The notes below the pieces were generated by a model. The model saw only the letters and a program-made list of their open reading frames with translations. It was not told where the DNA came from and did no database searches. The translations under genes were made by a program, and so were the position numbers. DNA of 32,000 bases from Acaryochloris thomasi RCC1774 (GTDB lineage: Bacteria > Cyanobacteriota > Cyanobacteriia > Thermosynechococcales > Thermosynechococcaceae): positions 1 through 32,000 of the forward strand of contig NZ_PQWO01000015.1 of NCBI RefSeq assembly GCF_003231495.1, read 5' to 3'. This document shows positions 2,796-22,508 of the stretch, in pieces (the stretch's first letter is position 1; the number at the start of each line of letters is the position of its first letter).

Positions 2796-2944
2796 GAATT
2801 TGAATAACGTTGAGGGTATCTCTAAACAGTCATAACCGATATAGATTGATCATCCAAGGACAGAAGTAGACTGCCGTCAGGCTTTGGTCTGATTGAAATT
2901 ACTCCAGCCTCAGAAAGGCATCCAGCTTCGCCCTAGATTAGCGC

Positions 2945-4108: not shown

Positions 4109-4201
4109 CAACAAAGTTTCGAGTCAGGACAACTGAAGCACATATCCTCTTAGAGATTCATCAAAAAAGATCAATACTATTTCAATCAAACAGAAAGCCC
4201 A

Positions 4202-5629
4202 CTATTGACTCAACTCAGACTCAACACCTTCAAGAATCCCTCGATAGTAAGCATTAGCAGCAAGAGAAATACCCGCAAACCCCCAAAAAACCATCGCCAA
4301 AGTAGAAATAAAAATCAAGTTAAGACCAACTTGAAAAAACAGACCAATAGCAATGGCCCTAGATGCGCTTGCAAAATCATCATTCTGTGATTTTTTTTCT
4401 GAGAACACCTTCCACAGAAGCAAGTAGATTCCGGCAGCAAAAAAAGTAATGCCGATCCAACCTAGCCAAAACATCATCGGCAAAATTGCTCCATCAAAGG
4501 TTGAGATTTTAGTCAGTCGGCTCAGATCAAAGCCAACGCCCCTACCAATCACTTCTTTGATTGCCTCACCAAACAAAGCATTATAGGCAGCCCGCCTTAC
4601 ACCAATACTATTGTCACCAGAGAGATCCGTTAAGCTGCCAAGTCGCTCAGTAATGAAGCCAGAGAAAGGCTCCGTCAAACTTAAGGGGATCATCACAGCA
4701 ATAGAGACAGAGATCAAAAGGATAATTCGGACCTGCCGCTGAGGTTTCAACGATGGCAGAAAGATAGCCATACTGATCAGCCAACTAACCCATCCCGCGC
4801 GTGCTCGGGATAGCAGAAAATTCAAATAGCCAAAAATAGAAGCGATAAAAGGTAGGGACTTTCCAGCATGGCATAGCATCAGCAGGAGTCCTGGAAATAT
4901 GAGACCTGCAAATTGCTGACGTCCCTCTGCCGTGCTGAAAAGGCCAAAAGCGGAATTGACTCCCTGAGAAACCTCATTCTCTTTTTCAATATGTAGCAAA
5001 TAGAGTTGATCCCATTGTGGCAAGATCAGCCTTTGAAATATCCCATAGACACCCATAACAATGAGGCCCCATAGGAAAACACTCAAGAACACTTTTCTAT
5101 ACTTAGGATAGTTTGGCGAGTCAAGAAACAAGTGAAACCCAAAGAATATAGGCCCTAACAGCTTTAATGTTCCGTAGGTATTTGCATTCAATGGATTTCC
5201 CTGTATAGTCCCAACAATAAACGCATAGACAACGCTAGAGATGCAGAGCAGAAAAGGTAAAGCTTTCTTGTCATACAGATAAGGCAGATAGCGAAAAAAT
5301 GTAATTGCACTCACCCAAGTTACTAAAAGAGGCGTTAGGACAAAATCGCCAGGCGTCAATCCTCCTTCTCTAAAGTCAATGAGGCGGCGAACGAAGGGTC
5401 CAATAAACCATAGCCACCAAGTAAAGCCGACATAGTAGTGCGGCATTCTAAAGTAAAAAAAGCACGCTATATATAAAGATCCAACCGGGAATAAGAGAGC
5501 TGCAGCTTTGCCAACACCTGCGGCCAGGGAAAGCCCCATCAAACCAACAAAACCGACAATCAATATCCAAGACTTTTTAAAGTCAGGGGAAGTGGAGGCT
5601 ATAGAAGGATTAGCAGTACGAACAAACAT
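4202..5629 (-). CDS. O-antigen ligase/polymerase-like (Wzy-type) polytopic membrane protein
   Basis: 475 aa, hydrophobic almost throughout (about 10 or more predicted helices) with one larger hydrophilic loop (…HIEKENEVSQGVNSAFGLFSTAEGRQQ…). It lies between glycosyltransferase genes. The call rests on topology and context, not on a diagnostic motif. Confidence 0.65.
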   Translation of the reverse strand: MFVRTANPSIASTSPDFKKSWILIVGFVGLMGLSLAAGVGKAAALLFPVGSLYIACFFYFRMPHYYVGFTWWLWFIGPFVRRLIDFREGGLTPGDFVLTPLLVTWVSAITFFRYLPYLYDKKALPFLLCISSVVYAFIVGTIQGNPLNANTYGTLKLLGPIFFGFHLFLDSPNYPKYRKVFLSVFLWGLIVMGVYGIFQRLILPQWDQLYLLHIEKENEVSQGVNSAFGLFSTAEGRQQFAGLIFPGLLLMLCHAGKSLPFIASIFGYLNFLLSRARAGWVSWLISMAIFLPSLKPQRQVRIILLISVSIAVMIPLSLTEPFSGFITERLGSLTDLSGDNSIGVRRAAYNALFGEAIKEVIGRGVGFDLSRLTKISTFDGAILPMMFWLGWIGITFFAAGIYLLLWKVFSEKKSQNDDFASASRAIAIGLFFQVGLNLIFISTLAMVFWGFAGISLAANAYYRGILEGVESELSQ

Positions 5630-5864
5630 AATTCAATCAACAAAAGGCTTGCAGGTGGGTAGGCCAAATTAAATTCAAGGCTTCCAGGAGTGGCTATCTA
5701 AACATTTATAAATTTCGCAGAGAAAATCTCATAAATCCGCTTTTATTTATCCAAAATTCAAAGACTTTATCATTACCTCCAAAGTCTTCAATCATTTATT
5801 TTATTGGCATTCTGGCATTCAAGCGAGACCAAAACAGAGCATAAATTTTTAATAAATTGACTAT

Positions 5865-7115
5865 CTAAGCACCTTTAGACATCTGAACTTTTCTATAAAT
5901 ATCTAGCAGTTGCTGATTTAGATCGGTGATATCAAAGTTCTCTTCTACATACTTCCTCCCAACGTGGCCCATTTCTGCCCAGCTTCCTGGATTCTCAATC
6001 AAATACATAAGTCGATCAACCAGCGCTGTAACATCACGTTCGGGAACCAGAAAAGCTGACCTTCCCTGGATAACGCTGTCTGGAAAACCATTATGCAATG
6101 TGGCGACGACCGGTAAGCCCATGGCCTGTGCTTCTTGCAAAACAAGACCTTGCCCCTCCCTATCCTGGTTTGCAGCAGTTACGCTCGCTAAGACAAAGAT
6201 ATGAGCTTGCTCATAGTATTTCTGCACCTCCTCCTTCGTCTTCCAGCCCAGTAAATGTACAGAGTCCTGTAGACGAAGTTCAACAATAAGTTGTTGAAGC
6301 CGACGGAGGAGAGGGCCGTCTCCGACAATCTCATACTGGATATTAGGATACTTTTCAATAACTTTAGAGACAGCTCTAATTGAATACTCAATGCCTTTTT
6401 TCTCGACCAGACGCGCAACCGTTAGCAGCCGAATGGGAGCATTCTCCTGAGAAACCTCACGTTCTCGGAAAGAATAAAGTGAGACGTCAAGACCAACAGG
6501 CAAACGTACAATCTTATCTGCAGCACAGTGCAGATCCATCAGCTTCTCAATTGTGAACTGTGAGTTAGCTGTGATGACATTTGCTTTTTGAAAAAGCTCT
6601 TTGTATACATCACTACCACTGAGTGCGGGAATCACATTGACGTCATAACCGTGGAAAGATGTGACAATCTGACCTGCAACAGCTCCAATCTCCCTGAGCT
6701 TAACGCCCATCGCACCAACGTGCCCATGATGACAGTGAACAATATCGTAATGATGATCCTCTCTACTTACAAAGGGAATTGCCCGATAGAACAACCTCAT
6801 TGAAGCCGCAAGCTCACCATGCCTATATATATTCAGTGCTTCAAGCAAAGGACGGAGTCTTGTATTGGTACTGCGAAAGAGCAGAGGCAACACACCCAGA
6901 GCTCTCGCAACCCAGTTTTTCGGAACAGTCGGGTAATAGAAAATACATTTTTGTAGCTCATACCTATCGATATCTCCGTGCTTCTTGACGACCTTAGATG
7001 GGCACTCAGCATAAATATCAACCTGATGACCACAATCAATTAAAGCTGTGATTTGGCTGAGGATAAACGTTTCCGATACGCTAGGAAACTCTCCGATTAG
7101 AAATGCAATTCTCAT
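5865..7115 (-). CDS. Glycosyltransferase family 4
   Basis: Signature 'REGQGLVLQEAQAMGLPVVATLHNGFPDSVIQGRSAFLVPERD'. The likely start is ATG 7113-7115 (MRIAFLIGEFP...). The tracked ORF extends to 7157, which would overlap the upstream gene by 29 nt. Confidence 0.9.
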   Translation of the reverse strand: MRIAFLIGEFPSVSETFILSQITALIDCGHQVDIYAECPSKVVKKHGDIDRYELQKCIFYYPTVPKNWVARALGVLPLLFRSTNTRLRPLLEALNIYRHGELAASMRLFYRAIPFVSREDHHYDIVHCHHGHVGAMGVKLREIGAVAGQIVTSFHGYDVNVIPALSGSDVYKELFQKANVITANSQFTIEKLMDLHCAADKIVRLPVGLDVSLYSFREREVSQENAPIRLLTVARLVEKKGIEYSIRAVSKVIEKYPNIQYEIVGDGPLLRRLQQLIVELRLQDSVHLLGWKTKEEVQKYYEQAHIFVLASVTAANQDREGQGLVLQEAQAMGLPVVATLHNGFPDSVIQGRSAFLVPERDVTALVDRLMYLIENPGSWAEMGHVGRKYVEENFDITDLNQQLLDIYRKVQMSKGA

Positions 7116-7128
7116 TATGAATGACAAA

Positions 7129-7869
7129 CTATGCGATTGAAGCGATCTTCTCGGCAACTAGACAATATCCTAGAGGAAATTTGTGTGATGTTTTATCTGA
7201 GCGTCTTCGGCCCATGTGAGATTTGATCAAGGCTTTGCTTAATCTGAAGTGAAGGGACGATAGGATGGAAGAGCCGACTAGCTGTTTAGCCATAATATCT
7301 AGAATCACCTCTAGAGCACCACCATATGCATCTAGCAATAAAATATTCAGATTATTCTCTTCACAAAACATCCTCAGCGAAAATTCTGTGTATCGAAAAT
7401 AGTCATAGGGGGTTTCGTGGAGCCAATAAAAGAAAGGGACGGTCAAGATAAGTTTTCCCTTTGGCTTCAAAACTCTGGCTATTTCGCGCATGACTAACTG
7501 CGGATTTGAAATGTGCTCTAGCACATCTGTCATGAGAACCGTATCAAATCGCGAGTCACTCAAGGGTATACCCTCATTGAGATTGACCGCATGATCGAGA
7601 TACATCTTTTGATGTAGGCTATCGGCCCAATCAATACAGATGTTATCCGTCACCAAGTTCTTATACATCTGGTAGAGCGGAACATCACCACAACCGAGAT
7701 CTAGCAGGACACCGCTTGCGTGCTTTTCAATCAGCTCCTGATAGACGCTAACCTGAATGGAGGCAATGAAACGAGAGCCAATGGCCACTTGTTTCGGATC
7801 CATTGATAAGCTATACCCTTCGCTGGACTGGATGAATTTAGTTTCACTCCATAATTCCTTATTGATCAT
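7129..7869 (-). CDS. Class I SAM-dependent methyltransferase
   Basis: Motif I 'GVLLDLGCGDVPLY', 'DTVLMTDVLEHI' and 'LKPKGKLILTVP'. The likely start is ATG 7867-7869 (MINKELW...); the tracked ORF extends to 7932. Confidence 0.85.
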   Translation of the reverse strand: MINKELWSETKFIQSSEGYSLSMDPKQVAIGSRFIASIQVSVYQELIEKHASGVLLDLGCGDVPLYQMYKNLVTDNICIDWADSLHQKMYLDHAVNLNEGIPLSDSRFDTVLMTDVLEHISNPQLVMREIARVLKPKGKLILTVPFFYWLHETPYDYFRYTEFSLRMFCEENNLNILLLDAYGGALEVILDIMAKQLVGSSILSSLHFRLSKALIKSHMGRRRSDKTSHKFPLGYCLVAEKIASIA

Positions 7870-8163
7870 AAAAGCCGCATTTGGTGGACCACCTTGAATA
7901 AAACATAAGAGCCTCAACTGATGACCACGCAATTATCACGCAGAACGTCATGACTCCCACTAGTCTACAAGGTCAAACAGGAAACAATCAGGGTAGACTC
8001 AACAACCGATGTCTCGTAGCGATATCCTTCAGCATCAGTCAATGGTTACCACTGAAATAAGGGTCACATCGCTGCAGAGAAAGCTCTTTGAGCCTTTTTG
8101 CACTATTGTCTCAATCTCAAGCTCGAAATAGGCTTTTCACAAAGATAGGCACAAGTTATGAGG

Positions 8164-10443
8164 TCAAGCTCTGAGGTACTTGTAGTTTTTAGTCGGCTGA
8201 TTGACGCCATTTGCGACTAAGCCAATGAGGTTGAGTTTGTCCAGAATATCAACAGCATTCGATAACTCAGTGCGAGTGATTTTGTCCATTCTGCCTACCA
8301 TAACCACGCCGTCACACCCAAGACCAACAGGGATAGTATCAACCAGTCCTAAAACCGGTGGGCTGTCTACAAGAATAAGATCATAACTATCTTGAAAAGC
8401 ACTGATGACCTCCTTCATCCGTTCAAGGCTCAATAGCTTCACCGGGTCCGCAGCAGAGGGGCCTGCAGTTAAAACATCCAAACTCAGATCTGAAGGGGGC
8501 AGGCGACGTAAGCTCGAGGAGGCTTCGCTCTCTTCACCCAAGTCGTCCTCGACATCGTCCCAGCGCATATAAACCCATTGAGGCGCTGACTGCCACTCTT
8601 GAGCTGGAATATCGCCGGTAAGTAGCGTAGAGAGCCCGTGGTGGTTAGTCAGATTGAACACTCGATGCAGGCTGGGATTACGCAAATCAGCATCAATAAT
8701 AAGTACACGCTGATCTAGACGTGAAGCGCTGATGGCTAGGCCGAGAGACAGGGTCGATTTTCCTTCCCCCGACAAGGCTGAAGTCACCATCAGGGACTTG
8801 TAGGGAACCCCCCCCTTCAGGAGTTGAATGTTGGCATAAATGAGATCTAGAGCCTCCCTAAGCGGTTTCCACTGAAATAGATCGGGGGTCGTAAACTCTT
8901 GAATATTATTTTGATAGAACGGAAGAGTTGCAAGCGCCTCCCTTGCCTCAGCTTGAGTCAATGCAGGAAGTGTTCCCAGCAGCGGTAGAGAAATATTATT
9001 GCCTAAGTCCTCTGAGTTGTGAACGGTATCATCCAGTGATTCGCGTACAAACGCAGCAATACTGCCCAAAAATAGTCCTGCAACTGTACCCAGCAATAAA
9101 TTTCTGATCACGTTGGGACTAGTCTGTTCACCTAAAAGCGGCGCTTCTACAATTTGCCAATCAAAGCCACCCTGAGCAATTGACAATCCCAGTTCTTGAC
9201 GGGCATCCAGAAGTCGTTGGAGTGTGGCTTGGCGAACCTGAACTTCGGGCTGTAGTCGGCTATATTGAGCAATCAGCTCTGGAAACTCTCGCAGCTCAGC
9301 CTCTAACTTGGCCTCGGTTTGCGCTAAGCTCTGATCTCGAGCGGCCAGCCCTGCCAGAGTATTTTGAGCTTGGGTTAGCTGGTTAGCAAGACCGACGTCA
9401 CCGCGTCCAAACTGACCTTGTGAAAGAATGGATTGATCACCGACTGCCCCTACACCATTGGGCAGTACTCGACTCTCTTCTTGCCTTAGCAAAGCTATCT
9501 GCTCTTCTCGCTGTTGCCTGAGATCTTGGAGAATCGGGTGTTCTGCTGTAAGCTGCTGCTGCTGTCGTGACAACTCTAGCTCTGTTGTCTGAATTTGATT
9601 GAGAAGAGCTTGGTATCGCGGTGATTCACTCAAACGGGCTGTTGAACGCGCTTGCCTAGGAGATGCCTCAATCTGCTGCTGTAGTGTCTCATAACTGGCT
9701 TTAGCTTCTCGGTATTGAGCCTTGAGAGATTCTCGCTCCTGCTTAACACTGGCCAACTGACTGGTCGTGACGCCAGCTTGCTCAGCAGGGTCAATGACAT
9801 TTTCCCCCCGCCGAAAGGCCTGCAGCGCGGCTTCTGCCTCTAAAACACTTTGACGGATCTCGGGTAACTGCTCGTTGATAAAGGCAAGCCCCTTCGATAA
9901 GCGCTGTTTCTGCTGCTCCAAATTATAGACTTGGAAAACAGAGAGTAAAGTTTGCAAAATACGCTGGGTTTTAGCCGGATCGTTACTGGTGTAGTCTGCG
10001 GATAAAACATTAGTTGCAATCTGGCCCTGTCCTGTTCGGTCAGCCCCATAGACTGGAGAAACTTCGAGGGCTCCCTGTATTTCTTCGACAGTTATATCTG
10101 GATAATCTTGCTGCAGTAAATCGATGGCCTTCTGAAGCAGTTCAGAACTACGCAGAATCTGGATTTGTGTGTTCGGATCGATTTCTACATTTGGATCTGT
10201 AAACTTATCTTCTGTCGCCTGACCGCGTCCTTGCTTCGCCGTGTAATTAGACTCAATCAAGATTCTCATCGAGCTTTGATATTCAGGCTCTGATCGAATT
10301 GTCCAAAGAATAGCTACACAGAGAACGCCCGCAAATGTTCCAAGGAACCAAACTCGGCGACGCAGGAGAATTGCTAATAAATGACCATAGCCCCAGTCTT
10401 GCTCTTTGATATTACTTTCATTCTTAATAAGAGTTCCAGTCAC
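8164..10443 (-). CDS. Polysaccharide co-polymerase / BY-type tyrosine autokinase (Wzc/GumC-like)
   Basis: 759 aa with an N-terminal TM helix, a long Q/E/L-rich coiled-coil periplasmic region and a second TM helix (LLLGTVAGLFLGSIAAFV). The C-terminal P-loop domain carries Walker A 'SALSGEGKST', Walker A' 'VLIIDADLRNPS' and Walker B 'YDLILVDSPP'. GTG start. Confidence 0.9.
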   Translation of the reverse strand: MTGTLIKNESNIKEQDWGYGHLLAILLRRRVWFLGTFAGVLCVAILWTIRSEPEYQSSMRILIESNYTAKQGRGQATEDKFTDPNVEIDPNTQIQILRSSELLQKAIDLLQQDYPDITVEEIQGALEVSPVYGADRTGQGQIATNVLSADYTSNDPAKTQRILQTLLSVFQVYNLEQQKQRLSKGLAFINEQLPEIRQSVLEAEAALQAFRRGENVIDPAEQAGVTTSQLASVKQERESLKAQYREAKASYETLQQQIEASPRQARSTARLSESPRYQALLNQIQTTELELSRQQQQLTAEHPILQDLRQQREEQIALLRQEESRVLPNGVGAVGDQSILSQGQFGRGDVGLANQLTQAQNTLAGLAARDQSLAQTEAKLEAELREFPELIAQYSRLQPEVQVRQATLQRLLDARQELGLSIAQGGFDWQIVEAPLLGEQTSPNVIRNLLLGTVAGLFLGSIAAFVRESLDDTVHNSEDLGNNISLPLLGTLPALTQAEAREALATLPFYQNNIQEFTTPDLFQWKPLREALDLIYANIQLLKGGVPYKSLMVTSALSGEGKSTLSLGLAISASRLDQRVLIIDADLRNPSLHRVFNLTNHHGLSTLLTGDIPAQEWQSAPQWVYMRWDDVEDDLGEESEASSSLRRLPPSDLSLDVLTAGPSAADPVKLLSLERMKEVISAFQDSYDLILVDSPPVLGLVDTIPVGLGCDGVVMVGRMDKITRTELSNAVDILDKLNLIGLVANGVNQPTKNYKYLRA

Positions 10444-10467
10444 AGTTAAATACCAATATATTTATAT

Positions 10468-11580
10468 TTATGCCCTAACGAGCTTTGGTGCCGCTCGTCT
10501 ATCGCAAAATTGATCAATCACCTGATCTACTTTCTGAAAAAATATCGTTTCAGAGAAATTGGAAAGTGCATGTTCTTGAATACTACGATAATCCCAGTTT
10601 ATCCCTGCAGCTGAAGTAACAGCATCCTGAACAGACTCGGCAGTCTGGCTTTTGAAAAACACACCTGTCTGTCCCGGAACCTGCGTGTCTAAGACCCCAC
10701 CTGCACCATAAGCAATGACAGGTGTACCGCTGGCATTCGCCTCTATTGGCACTAAGCCGTAGTCTTCTAATGCAGCAACTAGGACAGCTTGAGCGTGGGC
10801 CATCAACTCCATTCGAGTTGAATCAGACACCGGGCCAAGGAACTCAATATTAGAACCGGCTCTCGCTTTGAGCTGCATTTCTTCAGGCCCTTCGCCAATG
10901 ATCTTTAGTGGCAGTTTGAGTGCATTAAAAGCATCAACAACAACATCAATTCGCTTGTAGCTCAGCAGACGAGAACAGACAAGATAGTAGTCTTGCTTCT
11001 GGCTCGAAAAGGAAAATTTACTGGCATCAATGGGATAATTTACAACTAATGCATTCTGAGAATAAATATTTTTAATTCTACTAGCCACGGTCGTTGAGTT
11101 CGCAATGTACAAATCTGGCTCTCTCGCCGAGGCAAGATCTGTACTTCTCATTGCTTGAAAGATGGGCTGAATGAGGGCATAGAATTTCTGGTACCCTGAA
11201 AACTTTCTCAAGTATGTTTCGGTATCCCACAGAAAACGGGTGACGTTGTGACAGAAACAAATGTGTTGTGCGTCAGGGCGTTTACGTACTGACTTCGCAA
11301 AGCTAGTGCTGCTGCTAATGAGTAAGTCATAGTCTCGCAAGTCCAAGGCTCGAAAGGCTGAATAATAGAATGGAGCCATAAGCCGAAAGTGTTTACTGGC
11401 TCCAGGGATATTTTGGAGAACTGTCGTTTGAACCGCTCGATCACCCAGTTCGATTGTCTCTACTGGGTCATAAAGCGACGTATAGATATCAGCGGTCGGA
11501 AAGTGATGGCACAGTAGCTTGAAAACTCGCTCTGCCCCCCCTCTTTGAGTTAAGTAATCGTGGATTAGTGCAATTTTCAT
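10468..11580 (-). CDS. Glycosyltransferase family 4
   Basis: 'MKIALIHDYLTQRGGAERV' N-terminus and the C-terminal motif 'ALEDYGLVPIEANASGTPVIAYGAGGVLDTQVPGQTGVFF'. ATG 11578-11580 is the likely start; the tracked ORF extends to 11706. Confidence 0.9.
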   Translation of the reverse strand: MKIALIHDYLTQRGGAERVFKLLCHHFPTADIYTSLYDPVETIELGDRAVQTTVLQNIPGASKHFRLMAPFYYSAFRALDLRDYDLLISSSTSFAKSVRKRPDAQHICFCHNVTRFLWDTETYLRKFSGYQKFYALIQPIFQAMRSTDLASAREPDLYIANSTTVASRIKNIYSQNALVVNYPIDASKFSFSSQKQDYYLVCSRLLSYKRIDVVVDAFNALKLPLKIIGEGPEEMQLKARAGSNIEFLGPVSDSTRMELMAHAQAVLVAALEDYGLVPIEANASGTPVIAYGAGGVLDTQVPGQTGVFFKSQTAESVQDAVTSAAGINWDYRSIQEHALSNFSETIFFQKVDQVIDQFCDRRAAPKLVRA

Positions 11581-12116
11581 GAACGATTCTGTGTTGGGAA
11601 CTGCAAAAATGGGTGACGCGATGAAGAAAAATTGGGACAGGACGGCTGATTGACTCCATTTTAGGCGTTTTCTGACTCTAAGCTTAGCAATGAACCTTAG
11701 GGACAAACCTGGAGTCGTTCAGCCATACCGTTGCGAGCAATATGACTATCGTGGAGACAGCATAATTAAACGCACCCGCTTTTGGCTATTAGACCTATTT
11801 GTTCATATGTCTTAACATGACTAGGGGACATTGGTTAGTATTTCAGACAACACCATGTAGCCAACCTTAATGGACGGATGGCTGTCTGCAATGTTTCAGC
11901 ACTGAGAACCACTGCCAACATAAGACCATGGCAGGTTGCTCATACTGTCACCCAGTTACTGAGGAAAAATAAGCCAATGATGGCAAGCGCTTAGAATCTT
12001 TTGCGGTAAGCCGCTTACCCCCTCATTCAGTATACTTTCCTGTTTTTTGAACCGCCACATCGTCTACGGTATGGGGCATTTATTTGAGCAGATGTTGGAT
12101 TTTGACGTTGGACTCA

Positions 12117-13931
12117 CTAAAGCTGATAGTTCTGCGCCTGTGTTCTAAACAAATGAGCATAGCTTTGATCTGCTGCCATGAGTTCAGGGTGTGTTCCCTG
12201 CTCGATGATTTCTCCCTGGCTCATGACATAGATGCGGTCGGCTAATTTGACGGTGGAGAGACGATGGCTAATAAGGATTGCGGCCTGTTGTTGAATGAGT
12301 TGACGGAATTGCTGAAAAACCTCAAATTCAGCCTTAGGATCCATGGCACTGGTGGGTTCGTCTAGGACAATAAGTTGAGACTCACGTAAAAAAGCGCGGG
12401 CAAGGGCAATTTTCTGCCACTGTCCGATGCTAAGTTCTTCACCCTGATCAAACATTTTGCCAAGGACGGTGGCGTACCCTTGGGGCAGTCTTGTGATGAC
12501 GCGATCGGCACCTGAGCGGTAAGCGGCGGCCTGAACTTTGTTGTCTTCGGTAGAAATATCTATATTCCCAAGCCAAATATTATCTTGAGCAGTGAAATGA
12601 TACTTTGCGTAGTCCTGAAAAATGACGCTAATTTGGCGCCTAAGCTCAAGGGTGCTAAAGTCCCGCAGGTCAATGCCATCGATGGTGATGCTGCCTTGGG
12701 TGGGATCGTAGAGGCGGCACAGTAATTTAATCAGAGTTGTTTTGCCTGAACCATTTTCGCCCACGAGGGCAACGACTTCACCCGGTTGGACTTTGAGGTT
12801 GATATTTTTCAGCGCTTGCCGCTGGGTGGTGCCGTACTGAAAGCTGACGTGGTTGAAGGTGATACCAGCTTGAAAGGGAATGGGGACTGGCTGATGCTGA
12901 GTGGGTTCTATCACCCTGGATTTGATGTCTAAAAATTCGTAGAGGTTTGCCAGAAACAGGTTGTCTTCATAGAGTCCTGAGATGCTGGTTAAGAAGCCTC
13001 TAAGGTTAGTTTGCCCTTTTTGAAGAGCCTGATAGTAGAGAACTAAATCGCCAAGCTGTAGGCTACCCTGCAAGGTTTGGTAAATGATGTAGGCAAAGAT
13101 AGCGAAGACAAACAGGCCAGCACTGGCCTGGGCCCCAAAAAAAGCGGCAGAACGCTTGGATGCGATCGCAACTCGTTCTCGATAGAGCTGGCGTCTAATC
13201 TTCTGGTATCTTTGGCTGAACAGCTTCCCAAGGCCAAACAGGCGGATTTCCTTCGCAAACTGATCCGAGGTGAGCATCCATCCCAAATAACCGGATTGAC
13301 GCTCAAGCTGGGTGCGACGTCGCTGCCAGCGGTAGACCACGCGAGAAAAAATGAGGCGCACACAAACCGCAGGAATAGCCGCCCCCATCAAAACGACAAT
13401 CACTCCCCAGTGAAGTGACAGCAATAGACCCGCCATAGCCGCAAGAGATAGACCATTTTGGCCGCACTGCGCCAAGTGACTCAGAATTTGTGTGGGTCGG
13501 AATGGAGCCTCTTGCTGGGCTCGCTGAAGTGTGTCGTAATAGCGAGAATTTTCGTAAAATTCGAGATCGGCCTCAATCGACTTTGCATGAATAATACCCT
13601 GCATTGAGTCAGTGACTTGCTGTGCATGGGCCGTATTGACCAGCTCAGAAAGAGAGCTGCAGAGCGTCGTGAGTACCGTCACCAAAGCCGCTAATGCAAT
13701 CAGAGGCAGAATACTCTCAAATGCAGCCTCCTTATTGGCCACCGTGAGGTTGGCGGTGACAGCATCAATCACTAGCTTCGTTAAGTAGATAGAAGCCAAC
13801 GGCAGCAGCCCCTGGACAAAAATAAGGCTGATGCGGGCCACCGTCCAAGCGGGACTACTCTGCCACACCAGCTTCAACATCGGCAGCAGCCGGTTCATTC
13901 GCCGTAGCTGGCGTAAACGCGCGGCTGGCAT
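12117..13931 (-). CDS. ABC exporter, fused permease/ATPase
   Basis: N-terminal multi-helix TMD followed by an NBD with Walker A 'GENGSGKTT', signature 'LSIGQWQK', Walker B 'LIVLDEPTSAMD' and H-loop 'ILISHRL'. The likely start is ATG 13929-13931 (MPAARLRQL...), 19 nt after the upstream stop; the tracked ORF extends to 13988. Confidence 0.9.
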   Translation of the reverse strand: MPAARLRQLRRMNRLLPMLKLVWQSSPAWTVARISLIFVQGLLPLASIYLTKLVIDAVTANLTVANKEAAFESILPLIALAALVTVLTTLCSSLSELVNTAHAQQVTDSMQGIIHAKSIEADLEFYENSRYYDTLQRAQQEAPFRPTQILSHLAQCGQNGLSLAAMAGLLLSLHWGVIVVLMGAAIPAVCVRLIFSRVVYRWQRRRTQLERQSGYLGWMLTSDQFAKEIRLFGLGKLFSQRYQKIRRQLYRERVAIASKRSAAFFGAQASAGLFVFAIFAYIIYQTLQGSLQLGDLVLYYQALQKGQTNLRGFLTSISGLYEDNLFLANLYEFLDIKSRVIEPTQHQPVPIPFQAGITFNHVSFQYGTTQRQALKNINLKVQPGEVVALVGENGSGKTTLIKLLCRLYDPTQGSITIDGIDLRDFSTLELRRQISVIFQDYAKYHFTAQDNIWLGNIDISTEDNKVQAAAYRSGADRVITRLPQGYATVLGKMFDQGEELSIGQWQKIALARAFLRESQLIVLDEPTSAMDPKAEFEVFQQFRQLIQQQAAILISHRLSTVKLADRIYVMSQGEIIEQGTHPELMAADQSYAHLFRTQAQNYQL

Positions 13932-13950
13932 AGACGTGCCTACGGGTGGC

Positions 13951-14412
13951 TCACAATAAATCGATGCCCAGCGACGGCATGGGGACAAATCGCTTCAGAT
14001 CAGGCAATAGGCCAATGACGACAGAGCCCTCAAGCTCGATCCAAGCATGAGCCTCAAGGCAGTTATTCTGATCTTTGGCAACCCCAATACGTAAATCAGG
14101 CATATAGCCTCGGCGCGACATGAGAACCTGCGTCGTCAGCGCACGGGCAAGGCACTTGACGTGTCCCGGCATCAAATGACTGCTCACGTCCACGGCCCAA
14201 ACAATTTTATGAATCGAGCCGCAGCCAATGGAAGAGACCGGCAACGCCTGCGGGCTGTGACTTATCTTATAGAGAAACTGCTGTAGCCTCTTGAAGGGAA
14301 GTTGCCATAGCCCCAGACGCACCAACCCTAGCAGGATAAAAGCCTTTAATAGCAGCAGGCGATCTCTAGCAGGCAGGCGCACAAACTTAAGCAGTGACTT
14401 CATCTTTAACAA
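13951..14412 (-). CDS. Transglutaminase-fold cysteine protease, lasso-peptide B2-type (Transglut_core3-like)
   Basis: 153 aa. It has the N-terminal helix 'LLLLKAFILLGLVRLGLWQLPFKRL', the candidate catalytic Cys in 'HVKCLARALTTQVLMSRRG' and His in 'LEAHAWIELEGSVVIG'. It overlaps the PqqD gene by 26 nt. Confidence 0.8.
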   Translation of the reverse strand: MLKMKSLLKFVRLPARDRLLLLKAFILLGLVRLGLWQLPFKRLQQFLYKISHSPQALPVSSIGCGSIHKIVWAVDVSSHLMPGHVKCLARALTTQVLMSRRGYMPDLRIGVAKDQNNCLEAHAWIELEGSVVIGLLPDLKRFVPMPSLGIDLL

Positions 14413-14677
14413 CTACGAGCTGCGCTTCAATCATATCGTTCAGAAGGGCAAAGACATCGGCTTCACACTGTGCCGGATCAACCTCATATTCCTGCAGAAT
14501 GGCATCACAAATATCAGCCACGGCTTGAGGCTGCTGCAGCAACTTCCAAACGCTGGCCCCTACCTCATTTAGGCCGTAATACATGCCCGTTTTGAGGTTG
14601 AGAATCACAGACTCGTCCACCAACTCGGATGAGACTTGATCCGGTGCAATGACGACAATACTCTTTTTGCTAATCAC
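14387..14677 (-). CDS. PqqD-family peptide-binding protein (RRE; lasso B1-type)
   Basis: 96 aa with the classic PqqD pattern 'DESVILNLKTGMYYGLNEVGASVWKLL....VADICDAILQEYEVDPAQCEADVFALLNDMIEAQLV'. GTG start at 14675-14677. Confidence 0.85.
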   Translation of the reverse strand: MISKKSIVVIAPDQVSSELVDESVILNLKTGMYYGLNEVGASVWKLLQQPQAVADICDAILQEYEVDPAQCEADVFALLNDMIEAQLVVVKDEVTA

Positions 14678-15002
14678 AGGTCAGCTTAGATCGATACAAC
14701 TAAAAAGACATCTTGAGATCCCTTGAACCCAACATCAACCCTGCTCTCTTTAGGCATTAGATTGATGAAGAATATTGTGGATTTCAAGCCTTCAATTTTT
14801 CACTCTTGAAATAAGTTAAGAGGAACATTGAGATTAGACAGATGCTTTAGAGACCCCCTATCACTAAGCTCTGCCGAATGTGCCTCCAAGCTAGCATAAT
14901 ATCCTCAGTCCTCCTACTCAAAACAGGTCGGACACATCCATCATCAAATCATGCTGTGACCATGCCCCAAAGACGGCAGAGAAAGACATAACAGCTTGCC
15001 TT

Positions 15003-15848
15003 CTATCTCGCCCAGCGACTGCCCTTCCACAAACCGATCAGTAAAATAGCTGCGATCAACGCGCCGATATGCCACTTAACAGATTGCTTCAGCAGCCGGT
15101 TGCGCTGGCCCGTTAGTTTGATTAGCCGATTGCTTTCAAGCACCCGCTGGCGTTGAGCAAGGGCATCTGAGAACTGACCTCTTAAAGGCTCTACATCTTC
15201 TGTCTCTGATGACGGTAGGTCGAGTTCTGCAACGCGATATCTCTGGGCAATCGCGGCCAACTGTGACGGTGTTGTTGCTTGCTGTACCAGCTCTTCCACC
15301 TGCTGTATTCGGACTAACTGCTGTTCGGTATTGATGTTGACCCGCTCTTGCGCCATTTGATCGAGCCGCAGCGTATCCGTAATACCTAAAGGAATCACCA
15401 ACAGAAAGATCAGACCGGCCAACAACGTTATCCAAGACAGCAGCTTGAGAATCGGAAATTCCCATCTTGCACGGGGCTTCCGTTCACCGAAAAAGACCAG
15501 CAGCAGCCCTAGCAACGGCACCGGCACGCGCTCCACAAGTTGACCAATGGTTTGAAATTCCCAAGCTGGATCGGTAAAATAGGAGGGATAAAAGATTGCG
15601 GCCAAATCCAGCCCTACAAAGAGCAGTAGACCATAGCCGACCCAATGAAATAAGCTGGCGGCGCGAAAGACACTAAAGTAGAACTGCTGCAGTTCTCGGC
15701 TACTGTTTGGGAGACGCTTCTGCTGAAAGGGGTTACCACCCAATTTCTTCTTTGGAATCATAGACTTGAGAAGATACCTCACAGTAGTGCGGTTACGCTG
15801 GTCGTTAGTATATCCGAGCAAAAGTATCGTCGTATTGCTGGGTGACAA
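15003..15848 (-). CDS. HpsJ-like / cyanoexosortase-associated membrane protein
   Basis: 281 aa with four hydrophobic helices and a duplicated 'WEF' motif preceding a helix ('DPAWEFQTIGQLVERVPVPLLGLLLVFF' and 'RARWEFPILKLLSWITLLAGLIFLLV'). A Q/E-rich coiled segment and a C-terminal TM helix follow. It lies 40 nt downstream of the exosortase gene. The family name is from memory of RefSeq naming. The start is uncertain: TTG at 15848 or ATG at 15759-15761 (MIPKKK...). Confidence 0.55.
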   Translation of the reverse strand: MSPSNTTILLLGYTNDQRNRTTVRYLLKSMIPKKKLGGNPFQQKRLPNSSRELQQFYFSVFRAASLFHWVGYGLLLFVGLDLAAIFYPSYFTDPAWEFQTIGQLVERVPVPLLGLLLVFFGERKPRARWEFPILKLLSWITLLAGLIFLLVIPLGITDTLRLDQMAQERVNINTEQQLVRIQQVEELVQQATTPSQLAAIAQRYRVAELDLPSSETEDVEPLRGQFSDALAQRQRVLESNRLIKLTGQRNRLLKQSVKWHIGALIAAILLIGLWKGSRWAR

Positions 15849-15888
15849 CGACTTGAAAACGGATAATGTGCATCCGTAAGAAGTGACT

Positions 15889-16749
15889 TCAGACTTTTTG
15901 AGAATCAGAAGAAGTCTGATGAGCCTGACTAGGCTTCAGAACGGTTAGGCACAGGCTACCAAATAGGAGGACTGCGATACAAACAAATATCAATGCTCCC
16001 CCCTGACTATGCCAATATTCAAAAGCAGCATTGTCTGGATAGGTTGAGAGAATCGCTAATAGGGCAACTCGGATAGCATTAACGAAAAAGCCCAAAGCCA
16101 CTGCAACGATTGGCAGCAGAATTTTTTGGCTTTTGCGGGTGGGGAACAGGACAAGAAACAGGACTGAAACACCCAGCATATAAAGCATCAGATTGAGTCC
16201 CGAACAGCTCGGAACAACTTCAACCCCCCCATCGGGTAACCGGATAATATTGTTATCGACCAGTGCGACCTGAGCGCCGGTATACCAGAGCAAAAAGGTT
16301 GAGAAAGCTGCGGTGAACGGGGCTAAAAGATTGGGAATCACAGCAAGGGCCAACCGAGGCAGTCCCAGAAAGAAAAAGATAATCAGCTCTTGGCGGTACT
16401 GTCCCAGACCTCGTAAGCCGGAGGCCAAGGTTCCAACGCTAATAAAGGCCAACAGTGGGAAAAAACCGACAAACTTTTCACCCGGAGTTCCCACACTTTT
16501 TGCCAATAGCAAGCCCAAAAGCGCGATACTCACCAGAATTGAAATCAGGTCGCTATCGAGCCGTAGCTGCTCTCGCTTATCTGAGAGGGTGGACCAGGCA
16601 GCAGCAATAAAGGTGATGCTGAGGGCTAGGTGAGAGTAAGTCTCCGCACTCACATTAAGGTGCAGAAAAATCGCGGCTAAGGCTGCTGAAATAAGGATCA
16701 GGCCACGGACGGGGACTGTATAAGATTTTCCAAGGGTAGGATTAATCAT
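15889..16749 (-). CDS. Exosortase family protein (cyanoexosortase; A or B type not resolved)
   Basis: 286 aa, about 8 TM helices. The three exosortase/archaeosortase signature residues are in their usual order and context: Cys in 'VVPSCSGLNLM', Arg in 'FFVNAIRVALLA' and His in 'FEYWHSQGGALIF'. Confidence 0.85.
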   Translation of the reverse strand: MINPTLGKSYTVPVRGLILISAALAAIFLHLNVSAETYSHLALSITFIAAAWSTLSDKREQLRLDSDLISILVSIALLGLLLAKSVGTPGEKFVGFFPLLAFISVGTLASGLRGLGQYRQELIIFFFLGLPRLALAVIPNLLAPFTAAFSTFLLWYTGAQVALVDNNIIRLPDGGVEVVPSCSGLNLMLYMLGVSVLFLVLFPTRKSQKILLPIVAVALGFFVNAIRVALLAILSTYPDNAAFEYWHSQGGALIFVCIAVLLFGSLCLTVLKPSQAHQTSSDSQKV

Positions 16750-16906
16750 AAAGATAAATTCTCGACTGCAGCAGAGCGGCGCTTTTTGCTTAAGCCATGG
16801 TCTGAAGATGGTTTAGATCTAAAGGGTGAGATAGCTTGGGTTCCATATCACCGCTGAGGGAACGGTGTAGCGTGACCCGGATGCCGTATGGATTTAGGTT
16901 ACTAGT

Positions 16907-17830
16907 TTAGCGATCATTGGTAATATCCTGAGCGATCTGGGCTGCAATTCCGGGCAAACATGCCAAGGTCTTGGGGCGTCTGAGCTGGAAAAGGGGACAG
17001 GCTTGGGCAAGCGCCGCACATTGAGAAAAATGCGCGCTATCTCGAGCAGGCAAGATGACTTTGAGACCAGCAAATCGCAGGAGTTCGATGACGGCTTTTT
17101 GCGGTGATAGAGGGGTGATGCTCAACTGTGGGTCGGTGCTGAGAATAAAAATACGGTCGAGTTTTTGGGGTTCACAGACGGGTGGATCGATTCTGTAGAG
17201 ATGTTTTTCAGACAGCAAGGGCTGTGAAGGCGCTTTGATCTTGAGTGCTTGGGCCATCTGAGGATTGAGCTTGATAGGAGTACCTGCGATCGCAACTCTG
17301 ATTGGCGTAGATAAATCAATCACCGTCAGATCATCGGTGAGCAGTAGGTGGCCTTGGGCATGGAGCGCTGCCGCCATCGAGGACTTACCCTCACCAGAAT
17401 CGGCAAGAAAGACCACGGCTTTACCTGCGATACTGACGGCGCTGCCGTGGAGCACCAATCGCCCCCTTTGATAGCAGATCAGGGCCATCACAATGCCGGT
17501 AATCGCTTGGCGAATCCCTTCTGGCGAGGCGTCGGGCACTGGGATAACGGTGACCTGAATACCGCTCTGCAGCAAAAAAACGCCCACACCTTTGAGATAC
17601 ACCACGGCCGAATCGGGTGTTACCTGAAAGCCCAGGGGCTGCGGCAGCAGTTCCTCAGGAATGTGATCGCGGTAATCTCCTTCTTGGAGCCGAATCGTAA
17701 CGGGGTTCGCTTCAGGTATCTCGGCTGTGGAGAGTTCAGGAAAAGGGATATCAGAAAGAAGCGTCAACCCAAAGGCCGTGTGGACGTGCTGTTGAGCTGG
17801 CAATGGGTGCGTCAAATTGCGGGGTGACAC
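16907..17830 (-). CDS. HPr-kinase-related P-loop protein (HprK C-terminal-domain-like)
   Basis: 307 aa. 'LHGSAVSIAGKAVVFLADSGEGKSSMAAAL' matches the HprK-type 'hG..v...g.gvli.G.SG.GKS' nucleotide loop. The N-terminus 'AFGLTLLSDIPFPEL' is typical of HprK-related kinases found in RiPP/exosortase neighbourhoods. GTG start. Confidence 0.75.
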   Translation of the reverse strand: MSPRNLTHPLPAQQHVHTAFGLTLLSDIPFPELSTAEIPEANPVTIRLQEGDYRDHIPEELLPQPLGFQVTPDSAVVYLKGVGVFLLQSGIQVTVIPVPDASPEGIRQAITGIVMALICYQRGRLVLHGSAVSIAGKAVVFLADSGEGKSSMAAALHAQGHLLLTDDLTVIDLSTPIRVAIAGTPIKLNPQMAQALKIKAPSQPLLSEKHLYRIDPPVCEPQKLDRIFILSTDPQLSITPLSPQKAVIELLRFAGLKVILPARDSAHFSQCAALAQACPLFQLRRPKTLACLPGIAAQIAQDITNDR

Positions 17831-20541: not shown

Positions 20542-20610
20542 AGTGTCACTACCTCGACAGACACCGGGAAGCAGCAGGGTATTGTTTAGCTCGTGAGGAG
20601 TGATTCAAAC

Positions 20611-20660
20611 AAAAAGCCCCGGGAGTCGAAACAAGGAAAGACGTCCTAGGGCTTTTTTTT
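20611..20660. terminator. Bidirectional intrinsic terminator-like hairpin
   Basis: AAAAA-GCCCC...GGGC-TTTTTTTT. Stem segments are 20616-20619/20649-20652, 20621-20624/20644-20647 and 20625-20627/20640-20642, with a 12-nt loop. It is flanked by an A-run upstream and a T8 run downstream, so it reads as hairpin plus U-tract on both strands. Confidence 0.55.
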
Positions 20661-20717
20661 ATTGGTGCATTTAGAGACCTCACCGGTCTTCGCCGAAATC
20701 TCATCCTTTCTGTACCC

Positions 20718-21152
20718 ATGAGCCTCGTTCCTGAAGTTCGGCTTGCAAATGAAACCGACAGCGTCTCTATTGCAAATCTCCTTAGCACTTTGGGATACCC
20801 CTGTTCAGATACGGCTGTCCGTCGTCGGTTGGCAAAGCTTGTGGCAGGCAGTTCAGTTACGTTCGTCGCGGTTTCGGACTCTCGCATTATTGGTTTAGTC
20901 TCTGCACACAAAGTTCCTCTGCTGCATGAGGATGGTTGTGCCGCAATCATGACCTCATTGGTCGTTGACCAAAGGTCCCGCAGCAAAGGCGTTGGACGCT
21001 GCTTAGTCAACAATATTATGAGTTGGGCAGGAAAAGCAGATTGCCTAAAACTGACCGTAACAAGTTCCCTTTGTCGTGATCAGGCTCATTCATTCTATCG
21101 ACACATAGGGTTTGACCAAAACGGTTACCGCTTCACAATGAGGCTTGAATAG
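20718..21152 (+). CDS. GNAT family N-acetyltransferase
   Basis: 144 aa. Acetyl-CoA-binding motif A 'LVVDQRSRSKGVGRCLV' (Q/R-x-x-G-x-G/A) and the C-terminal 'AHSFYRHIGF'. Confidence 0.85.
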   Translation: MSLVPEVRLANETDSVSIANLLSTLGYPCSDTAVRRRLAKLVAGSSVTFVAVSDSRIIGLVSAHKVPLLHEDGCAAIMTSLVVDQRSRSKGVGRCLVNNIMSWAGKADCLKLTVTSSLCRDQAHSFYRHIGFDQNGYRFTMRLE

Positions 21153-21357
21153 CATGGAGTCACTACGCTTGGCGCATAGGATTTTCCTGCAGGTAAGCGT
21201 CATGCTCTATCAATGAACCATGGGTGACATCGTCTTGCCAATCCAAGGATATATTTCCACTTAAGTCCCCTGTCACGTTTGGAACTTTCCCTTTGGGCCA
21301 CTGGTCTCAAAAGCTACCAACACGCCAATCCCACGGCGTCGCATTGAGGAGATCCCC

Positions 21358-22011
21358 ATGACACAACCGCGACTAACAACCCAGGCCGGACTTGCAACCT
21401 TAATCGCCCTAGGACTGAGCGCCGGCAGTTTGACACCGCTCCTAGCACCGCAGCCCGCTACCGCACAAATTTTCCGTCGTTCCGATGGTCGGCTCAAGAT
21501 TGCAGAGGGAACGAAGATCCGAACCACTCGTTCAGGCGCTAAGCGCATTATCATCAACCCGGACGAAAGCATGCCCATCTCACTGACCACGACCCAAGCG
21601 GTCCGCTCCAGAAGAGGCACTGTTGTGATCCCACGCGGCAGCACCATCAGAGGAAAGTTGGCACCTCGACGAGGCGGCACTCAGTTTATTGCCGACTCCT
21701 TGATCCTTAAAGACGGAGGACGGTTCAACATTAGGGCTAATTCTGACGTTATTACCCGCACCAGAGAAGTTGATAGAGGTCGCCGAACCGATCCCATCTG
21801 GCAGGGTGCGCTTGTCGGGGGAGCCGCCACCGCTGCAATCTCTGAGATCTTTGGTGAAGCCGGTATCTTCAAAGTGCTGGCGGGTTCAGGTGCAGGTGCT
21901 TTGGGCGGATTTCTCTTAGGCGGTCGGGATAAGGCTGAAGTCAGGGTGATAGACCCACAAACCGACCTAGATTTGACTTTAAGGTCTGATTTATTCCTGA
22001 GTCGTTCCTAA
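21358..22011 (+). CDS. Secreted hypothetical protein with C-terminal glycine-zipper segment
   Basis: GAGGAG lies 6 nt upstream of the ATG. The signal peptide is 'LATLIALGLSAGSLTPLLAPQPATAQ', followed by an R/T-rich middle and a C-terminal 'GALVGGAATAAISEIFGEAGIFKVLAGSGAGALGGFLLGG'. Confidence 0.6.
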   Translation: MTQPRLTTQAGLATLIALGLSAGSLTPLLAPQPATAQIFRRSDGRLKIAEGTKIRTTRSGAKRIIINPDESMPISLTTTQAVRSRRGTVVIPRGSTIRGKLAPRRGGTQFIADSLILKDGGRFNIRANSDVITRTREVDRGRRTDPIWQGALVGGAATAAISEIFGEAGIFKVLAGSGAGALGGFLLGGRDKAEVRVIDPQTDLDLTLRSDLFLSRS

Positions 22012-22508
22012 TGGGCGGCGAGATTCGCATCGGCTTGGCAGGCTTCTACGAGACGGAGATCGTTATCGCTGACCTCACCGATGGGGTGATAAGAATTAAG
22101 GCTCACAGTATGTCTGTAAACCTGCTGCTCATAGCCCATGACCGTCAGCTCTAACTGCTTGGCCTTGAGATCGCCGCGAAAACAGTCAAAGGAGGACTGA
22201 GGCATATAGAACGCGCCAATCACTCGCTGGTTTCGAACTCGGAAGACAAAATATTCTGTCTGTGCCTGTTCTGGCTTCTGAGTTCTGCCATACAGGTAAG
22301 TCCCATCTTGCAGACTGGGCTGGGCCTTCAAAGAAACCGCAACGGCGCTGCTTTCTTGCTGTTGCCATTCGGGCTGTTGAGCCTGAACCTCAGCCCCCTG
22401 CATGCTCAATCCAGCACCACTGAATAGAGCAAGCCACAGTATCTTCTTACAGAGAGAGGCTGAGAGAAATAACCGGGCTTTGCCAATATGTAAATGTGGA
22501 ACCAACAT
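22008..22508 (-). CDS. Secreted hypothetical protein
   Basis: 166 aa with an N-terminal signal-like 'ILWLALFSGAGLSMQGAEVQA'. No recognisable domain. Its stop codon overlaps the stop of the convergent gene 21358-22011. Confidence 0.5.
   Translation of the reverse strand: MLVPHLHIGKARLFLSASLCKKILWLALFSGAGLSMQGAEVQAQQPEWQQQESSAVAVSLKAQPSLQDGTYLYGRTQKPEQAQTEYFVFRVRNQRVIGAFYMPQSSFDCFRGDLKAKQLELTVMGYEQQVYRHTVSLNSYHPIGEVSDNDLRLVEACQADANLAAH

Follow-up and report, generated by a model that had tools for sequence, protein, structure and literature searches.

Introduction

Lasso peptide clusters of cyanobacteria combine a PqqD-type RiPP (ribosomally synthesised and post-translationally modified peptide) recognition element (RRE) protein (B1), a leader peptidase (B2), a cyclase (C), one or more precursors (A) and an ABC exporter (D), usually together with an HprK-like kinase. 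In the paeninodin type, an HPr-kinase-like enzyme phosphorylates a C-terminal serine. Here we analysed a 32-kb stretch of the genome of Acaryochloris thomasi RCC1774 (the window), in which a cassette of six minus-strand genes (12117-17830) joins B1, B2, D and an HprK-like gene (K1) to the genes of cyanoexosortase A (CrtA) and an HpsJ-like protein. Homologous B1, B2, exporter and kinase genes (each present in 71-79 of 80 loci) and the order B1-B2...D are common to the window and to cyanobacterial lasso clusters (NF033535, NF033537, NF033536); the window differs in lacking cyclase and precursor, in the direct abutment of B2 on the exporter, and in the position of CrtA and HpsJ between K1 and B1. 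The likeness to the paeninodin type is one of gene content (split B1/B2, ABC exporter, HprK-like P-loop kinase), and precursors of related cyanobacterial clusters often end in serine, as fits that type, but in the window the substrate is absent.

Three further systems invite comparison. The cyanoexosortase B system of Nostoc punctiforme likewise consists of an exosortase and an adjacent HpsJ-family partner beside polysaccharide genes (mSphere 2025, PMC12188702). The window exosortase, in contrast, is of type A (TIGR03763), for which our literature search found no experimental study, and lasso genes have not been reported with CrtB. Peptidase-containing ABC transporters (PCATs) for double-glycine-leader bacteriocins carry a C39 protease fused to the transporter and use no RRE in leader recognition. 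They strip off a leader before exporting a linear peptide, as proposed below for B1-B2-D; this is a functional analogy with an unrelated protease fold, and homology is not claimed. Haft's HPr-rel-A system, finally, pairs the HprK-related kinase A of TIGR04352 with a PqqD-family partner near PEP-CTERM loci, so that on the surface it resembles the window in having a kinase-like protein and a PqqD in the vicinity of an exosortase.

Results

Relatives of the B2 locus were retrieved as numbered loci or contigs (L001, L002, etc.). One of them, L086 (B2 65% identity), was syntenic with the window from DUF2064/GT2/LigA to GT4/Wzc/methyltransferase, with the order DUF2064-GT2-LigA-K1-CrtA-HpsJ-B1-B2-(cyclase-precursor-K2)-ABC-GT4-Wzc-methyltransferase, K2 being a second HprK-like gene (Table 1). 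In the window, L083 (B2 91%) and L081/L082 (83%), the approximately 3.5 kb in parentheses was gone and the exporter gene followed B2 after 19 nt. This spacer was homologous among the three lineages and therefore marks a single ancestral deletion of C, A and K2: one precise event, confined to the subclade of A. thomasi, brought B2 and the ABC exporter together. The cyclase-less state, noted in a preceding sequence-only reading of the window, is thus common to at least three lineages and no accident of one genome. The ancestral arrangement, CrtA-HpsJ-PqqD-B2 followed directly by the cyclase, was also retained in L084, L085, L001, L002 and L090-L092.

Of the components of a lasso biosynthetic gene cluster, B1, B2 and the exporter were present in the window and the cyclase and precursor were missing. 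No asparagine-synthetase-like open reading frame (ORF; PF00733) was found when 26 of the 34 window ORFs of at least 120 aa were scanned with Pfam, and tblastn with two lasso cyclases from cyanobacteria as queries returned noise only over the six frames (best E = 0.5), in agreement with the earlier statement that these 32 kb hold no cyclase. A precursor with a YxxPxL...T(-2) leader and Asp or Glu at core positions 7-9 was likewise not found in the six window frames by motif scans or with a leader hidden Markov model (HMM) built from 87 distinct leaders: nothing appeared at E <5, while the positive controls L086 and L087 were recovered at 3e-10. The leader HMM also gave no match in L081-L083 or L001, and cyclase pseudogene remnants were detected neither in the window nor in other cyclase-less loci.

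The genes left behind were maintained. Ratios of nonsynonymous to synonymous divergence (dN/dS) were calculated with the simple NG86 (Nei-Gojobori) method for the three lineages of the deletion clade, in which dS was saturated. Between the window and L081, both post-deletion (dS 1.1-2.0), dN/dS was 0.05 for PqqD, 0.076 for B2, 0.13 for K1 and 0.047 for the exporter, compared with 0.062 for LigA, 0.086 for CrtA and 0.070 for HpsJ; within the clade the ranges were 0.035-0.05 (PqqD), 0.11-0.13 (K1) and 0.04-0.05 (ABC). Normalised to CrtA/HpsJ, the dN of PqqD was 0.48-0.50 in deletion-clade pairs vs. 0.37-0.57 in cyclase-bearing pairs, and that of B2 0.78-0.83 vs. 0.87-0.93, so that constraint on the leftover genes is unrelaxed relative to cyclase-bearing relatives. 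Since neutral decay would have destroyed the reading frames over such divergence, intact frames with low dN/dS despite saturated dS indicate that the leftover is not dead. The proposal of a maintained cyclase-less cassette was in this respect borne out, the retained genes being under purifying selection.

The standard against which the window was read came from a scan of species-representative cyanobacterial genomes with a B2 alignment, which yielded 80 loci with flanks of up to 10 kb. In 79 of these a PqqD homolog was encoded no more than 10 kb from B2, directly upstream in most; an HprK-like gene was present in 73, and an ABC homolog (36-69% identity) within 10 kb of B2 in 71, those at 54-69% identity being likely orthologs. 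The window exporter was 60-69% identical to that of many cyanobacterial lasso loci. The cyclase, a 650-690-aa protein between B2 and the kinase (NF033535, 796-1108 bits), was found in 69 loci, starting at most 60 nt after the B2 stop codon in 62 and lying elsewhere within 10 kb in seven; it was missing in eight loci despite at least 2.5 kb of contig past B2, and three contigs ended too early to tell. The cyclase was followed by one to five small genes whose products share the leader MKK[AT][YW]xxPxLxxYGxVxxxT, and motif-bearing precursors were detected in 65 loci. The cyanobacterial order is thus B1-B2-C-A(n)-K-D, the canonical kinase-type lasso cluster, and not the order K-A-C-B1-B2-D that the sequence-only reading had assumed.

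The positional counterpart of the window cluster in Acaryochloris marina MBIC11017 (L050:9715-19259) carries genes for a 2OG-Fe(II) oxygenase and a JmjC-domain protein as extra tailoring genes between B2 and the cyclase. Its two 46-aa precursors end in ...DDITS and ...DDVTS, and the C-terminal serine would suit a paeninodin-like kinase.

All six minus-strand ORFs were found where they had been placed, and five of the six family assignments were upheld by HMM searches. CrtA scored 274 bits with TIGR03763 (cutoff 150) and 134 bits with PF09721, and its catalytic residues, said to be intact, were indeed invariant in the clade alignment (Cys182, Arg227, His247). The HpsJ-like protein A next to it matched NF050013 (252 bits, cutoff 140) from residue 64; its true start is probably near 15764 (~253 aa), as the gene calls of relatives are 250-254 aa long. 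A catalytically complete CrtA above cutoff and an adjacent HpsJ-like A, two features of a cyanoexosortase A system, were both present. PqqD scored 79.9 bits with PF05402 (cutoff 23.4); its best NCBIfam model was lasso_PqqD_Bac (NF033536; 75.7 bits, slightly below the cutoff of 80), and among the PqqD-type NCBIfam models matching at E <=0.01 the lasso models ranked best. This B1, whose gene overlaps B2, was 81% identical to that of L086. B2 was recognised by NF033537 (113.9 bits, cutoff 33) and PF13471 (78.7 bits) and retained the catalytic Cys87, His122 and Asp138; by the gene calls of relatives it starts at 14403 (150 aa), and a PDB sequence search with it gave no match. The B2 protein was 100% identical to one from A. 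thomasi RCC1774. The exporter, starting at 13931 (604 aa), scored 120.7 bits with PF00005 and 27.7 with PF00664, marginally under the cutoff of 28. Its conservation across cyanobacterial orders is unusual: it was 67-69% identical to those of L003, L004, L010, L065 and others, while in the same loci identity to the window was 57-63% for B2, ~50% for PqqD and 31-40% for the kinase. A second exporter subtype (~40% identity) occupied the same position in other loci.

The HprK-like assignment of K1 was weak and held at superfamily level only, for the P-loop segment. Scores were 27.6 bits with PF07475 (cutoff 33.3), 39.6 with TIGR04352 (cutoff 200), 19.2 with TIGR04355 (cutoff 200) and 28.1 with TIGR00679 (cutoff 240), and K1 thus gave no full-length match above cutoff to HPr kinase/phosphorylase or to HprK-related kinases A and B. 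HprK in the PDB aligned to residues 124-171 (E = 1e-3), and the Walker A motif DSGEGKSS and a TDD motif were intact. K1 does belong to the lasso-cluster HprK-like kinases, a class defined by co-occurrence, with tblastn homologs in the 73 loci given above; it was 30% identical to K2 of L086 and 33-37% identical to lasso-cluster kinases of Moorena, Nostoc, A. marina, L029 and L041. A link to the HprK-related and PqqD families catalogued near exosortases did not hold, because K1 falls far short of the TIGR04352 cutoff and PqqD scores best on lasso models; the window is not a member of that system.

Table 1. Features of the cassette in the window and of the related loci used for comparison.
Sequence	Feature	Positions	Strand	Evidence or remark
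Window	K1, HprK-superfamily P-loop kinase, paralog of lasso-cluster kinases	16907-17830	-	PF07475, TIGR04352, PDB HprK
Window	Cyanoexosortase A (CrtA)	15889-16749	-	TIGR03763 274 bits, PF09721 134 bits
Window	HpsJ-like protein, cyanoexosortase A-associated	15003-15848	-	NF050013 252 bits
Window	HpsJ-PqqD intergenic region, enlarged in deletion clade	14678-15002	-	Comparison with relatives
Window	15-nt promoter-like element TGCTAGCTTGGAGGC	14882-14896	-	Clade conservation
Window	B1, PqqD-type RRE, leader-peptide binding	14387-14677	-	PF05402, lasso_PqqD_Bac
Window	B2, transglutaminase-like lasso leader peptidase	13951-14412	-	NF033537 113.9 bits
Window	Deletion junction, 19-nt spacer	13932-13950	-	~3.5 kb with C, A and K2 at this place in L086
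Window	D, ABC exporter of cyanobacterial lasso-cluster type	12117-13931	-	PF00005 120.7 bits
L086	Cyclase	10450-12423		657 aa
L086	Precursor	12596-12769		57 aa, MKSVYHSPKLISHGSVESITRAFGSSAAED...
L086	K2, second HprK-like	13070-13972		300 aa; ABC begins at 13977
L001	15-nt element	5693-5707
L002	15-nt element	1557-1571
L081	15-nt element	9504-9518
L083	15-nt element	4078-4092
L084	15-nt element	9665-9679
L086	15-nt element	9675-9689
L019	Nostoc-type cyclase-less cluster, representative	2190-13517		Nostoc linckia NIES-25 (AP018222)

The region between HpsJ and PqqD, 325 bp in the window, measured 314-450 bp across the window, L083 and L081 vs. approximately 83-192 bp in cyclase-bearing relatives. 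Two small ORFs in it, MSFSAVFGAWSQHDLMMDVSDLF and MLAWRHIRQSLVIGGL, were rejected as precursors, being conserved in L081 in neither length nor sequence and lacking the leader motif. The gap was also rejected as a remnant of the deleted block, since blastn-short recovered only a shared promoter-like element. With three gap sequences, the covariation term of RNAalifold was positive, hence unfavourable, and no Rfam family matched there. The element, 15 nt long (TGCTAGCTTGGAGGC/TGCTAGCNTRGAGGC), occurred exactly once in each locus of the clade (eight loci and the window) and in every case lay between HpsJ and PqqD; TGCTAGCNTRGAGGC was absent from 81 other loci. The element holds the palindrome GCTAGC and resembles an extended -10 promoter or an operator. 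Its distance to PqqD was approximately 200 nt in the deletion clade vs. approximately 40-50 nt in cyclase-bearing relatives, and the additional leader sequence in the deletion clade contained several invariant blocks. The position of this conserved element suggests that B1-B2, possibly with D, form a transcription unit of their own.

The same parts are used without a cyclase elsewhere. Five Nostoc-type loci (L019, L035, L063, L072, L079) had no cyclase within 10 kb and shared the order PqqD, GT4, two to three precursors, HprK-like, two GT2/TPR genes, epimerase, (Branch glycosyltransferase), B2, ABC, NTP_transf_5. Their precursors carried a lasso-like leader (MKKNYSEPELKAHGKISGLTQQ) and Gly/Thr-rich cores, several of them without Asp or Glu, for which an isopeptide ring is therefore impossible. 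These clusters may represent an undescribed class of linear RiPPs, possibly glycosylated or phosphorylated. A compact cyclase-less set, PqqD-B2-HprK-ABC, was found at L041:9715-13538, and at L029:9715-16247, again with no cyclase, a 1.8-kb ORF-poor gap separated PqqD and B2 from HprK, a fatty-acid hydroxylase and ABC; neither a motif-bearing precursor nor a cyclase remnant was detected in these two loci.

Partner genes in other parts of the genome were sought through relatives of the ancestral ones. Among the best 120 relatives of the L086 cyclase listed (at least 46% identity), many of them without a source name, none bore the name of A. thomasi, of P01_A01_bin.17 or of a deletion-clade metagenome-assembled genome (MAG); the four closest cyclases among the matches listed all adjoin B2 in cyclase-bearing relatives. 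When the entire database was searched with a profile of the lineage's precursors, no more than 13 proteins matched, and none was attributable to A. thomasi, P01_A01_bin.17 or the deletion-clade MAGs. A literature search on A. thomasi and on Acaryochloris lasso peptides found nothing relevant. In two Thermosynechococcaceae assemblies, GCA_050330855.1 (L001/L093 and L088) and GCA_964435315.1 (L091 and L087), the cluster was split, with K1-CrtA-HpsJ-B1-B2-C on one contig and A-K2-D on another, where it neighbours unrelated genes (SIMPL, proteasome-like, ATP-grasp). This sister lineage tolerates operation in trans. In the second assembly, B2 was called as only 73 aa (L091:9783-10004) between an intact PqqD gene and an intact cyclase gene, which could reflect a frameshift, a pseudogene or an assembly error.

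Throughout one clade, with B2 identities of 65-100%, CrtA-HpsJ-B1-B2 formed an uninterrupted block. Conservation of the gene order across cyanobacteria, a check proposed in the sequence-only reading, was confirmed within this clade and not beyond it: only two of the 80 species-level B2 loci contained CrtA and HpsJ, and both belong to the clade of the window. The adjacency therefore reflects synteny within one lineage, and cyanobacteria in general do not share it. A metagenome scan with the CrtA alignment matched patterns and confirmed no relative. At the upstream end, the K1 stop codon overlaps the CrtA start by one base in L086 (6875-8691), suggesting translational coupling, while the K1-CrtA gap is 141-165 nt in the window, L081, L083 and L001; L084 and L085 have no K1 upstream of CrtA.

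The surroundings had been described as a locus for sulfated extracellular polysaccharide (EPS), and a sulfotransferase, several GT4 glycosyltransferases, a Wzc-like protein and a methyltransferase were found on the left flank. A Cyano-1 small RNA (RF01701) was located at 20587-20661 on the plus strand (50.9 bits, gathering score 41), with LigA on one side and a group of small unannotated ORFs on the other. At 20549-22508, 24962-26326 and 4202-5629, several ORFs (154-475 aa) had no Pfam or NCBIfam match, and two of the unannotated window ORFs (166 and 217 aa) had counterparts matched in size and order in the gene calls of L081 and L086.

Discussion

The cassette is probably a former lasso cluster whose B1, B2 and D, together with K1, would still mature and export a peptide encoded elsewhere. 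Under this reading, a CrtA/HpsJ-like pair, a PEP-CTERM sorting module, is nested in a lineage-specific kinase-type lasso cluster of the ancestral order K1 / CrtA-HpsJ / B1-B2-C-A-K2-D, from which the loss of C, A and K2 joined B2 to D. The PqqD RRE would bind the YxxPxL-type leader of a peptide encoded outside the locus, B2 would remove the leader, the ABC transporter would export the product and K1 may phosphorylate it, with CrtA/HpsJ acting independently on PEP-CTERM proteins and presumably replacing nothing. More specifically, we propose, tentatively, that B1-B2-ABC (with K1) was kept as a cyclase-independent RiPP module for a linear, possibly phosphorylated peptide encoded elsewhere. Leader removal would by analogy be independent of cyclisation: the split peptidase and RRE of the fusilassin pathway cut the leader from eight of eight chimeric substrates that the cyclase left uncyclised, giving linear cores (bioRxiv 10.1101/2020.11.25.399105). 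Large lasso surveys retain only loci with RRE, peptidase and cyclase together (bioRxiv 10.1101/2020.11.25.399105); because such pipelines need a local cyclase, cyclase-less cassettes are discarded by design and have therefore gone unremarked.

Several points weigh against this interpretation. As the searches identified no substrate, selection alone speaks for activity of the module, and the dN/dS values come from three lineages, a simple NG86 calculation and saturated dS. The cyclase search covered the best 120 matches and may have missed a paralogous A. thomasi cyclase of less than approximately 46% identity, as well as a small precursor that was not called as a gene; since unlinked parts are tolerated in the sister lineage, A. 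thomasi may have either of them. In addition, CrtA-HpsJ-B1-B2 outlasted three independent rearrangements (L084 has no K1, A-K2-D lies elsewhere in L001, and the window has lost C-A-K2), which keeps a functional tie to the exosortase conceivable. A true lasso pathway in trans, with cyclase and precursor elsewhere in the A. thomasi genome partnering B1-B2-D and K1, is rather unlikely. It is prefigured by the two split assemblies, lasso loci occur more than once in several cyanobacterial genomes (L005/L032, L009/L055, L060/L077), and the window B1 is close enough to that of L086 that it should still recognise the same leader type. The named cyclase and precursor matches did not point to A. thomasi or P01_A01_bin.17, however; the cyclase adjoins B2 in 62 of the 69 cyclase-bearing loci, and a second complete cluster would normally carry its own B1 and B2. 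The cyclase-independent mode appears slightly more likely than an unlinked cyclase. The view that the cassette no longer functions and is what decay has left of a lasso cluster heading for loss is strongly disfavoured and hardly credible: the locus has indeed lost both the essential cyclase and the precursor, but the four retained ORFs are intact in three lineages across saturated synonymous divergence, with unrelaxed dN/dS of 0.04-0.13, and catalytic residues are kept.

The sequence-only reading had placed the exosortase and HpsJ-like genes in the slot of precursor and cyclase and suggested that they functionally replace both, with leader removal or phosphorylation coupled to exosortase-type transpeptidation or to EPS export. 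The exosortase and lasso genes do lie on one strand beside an EPS locus, and the contiguity of the CrtA-HpsJ-B1-B2 block through the three rearrangements is weak evidence for linkage. We nevertheless reject both parts of the suggestion and regard such a replacement as very improbable. Relatives with the identical K1-CrtA-HpsJ-B1-B2 layout keep a canonical cyclase directly after B2; CrtA/HpsJ thus precede B1 whether or not the genome has the cyclase after B2 and therefore do not fill the cyclase/precursor slot, and the deleted block sat between B2 and ABC, away from the position of CrtA. The adjacency is confined to two of the species-level loci, K1 and PqqD are of the lasso type and not of the HPr-rel-A type, and the conserved promoter-like element parts HpsJ from PqqD. 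By family, B1 and B2 are cytoplasmic leader-processing proteins. Exosortases, in contrast, act at the membrane on Sec-exported PEP-CTERM proteins (PMC12188702). No PEP-CTERM cargo was found within the 32-kb window. Such cargo genes are usually dispersed in the genome. A stronger version of our own proposal, in which the lasting linkage to CrtA-HpsJ reflects a common role in the cell envelope or EPS, is improbable as well.

The attractive link between lasso enzymes and exosortase chemistry is thus corrected as wrong. What takes its place is a cyclase-less cassette on which purifying selection continued to act long after the deletion, a datable event, and unrelated Nostoc loci that apply the same parts to precursors incapable of forming a lasso ring. 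If such modules do work without a cyclase, the B1/B2/D machinery of lasso peptides would have a second life in making linear peptides, RiPP genome mining would be widened, and a ready-made pair of RRE-dependent leader protease and exporter would become available.

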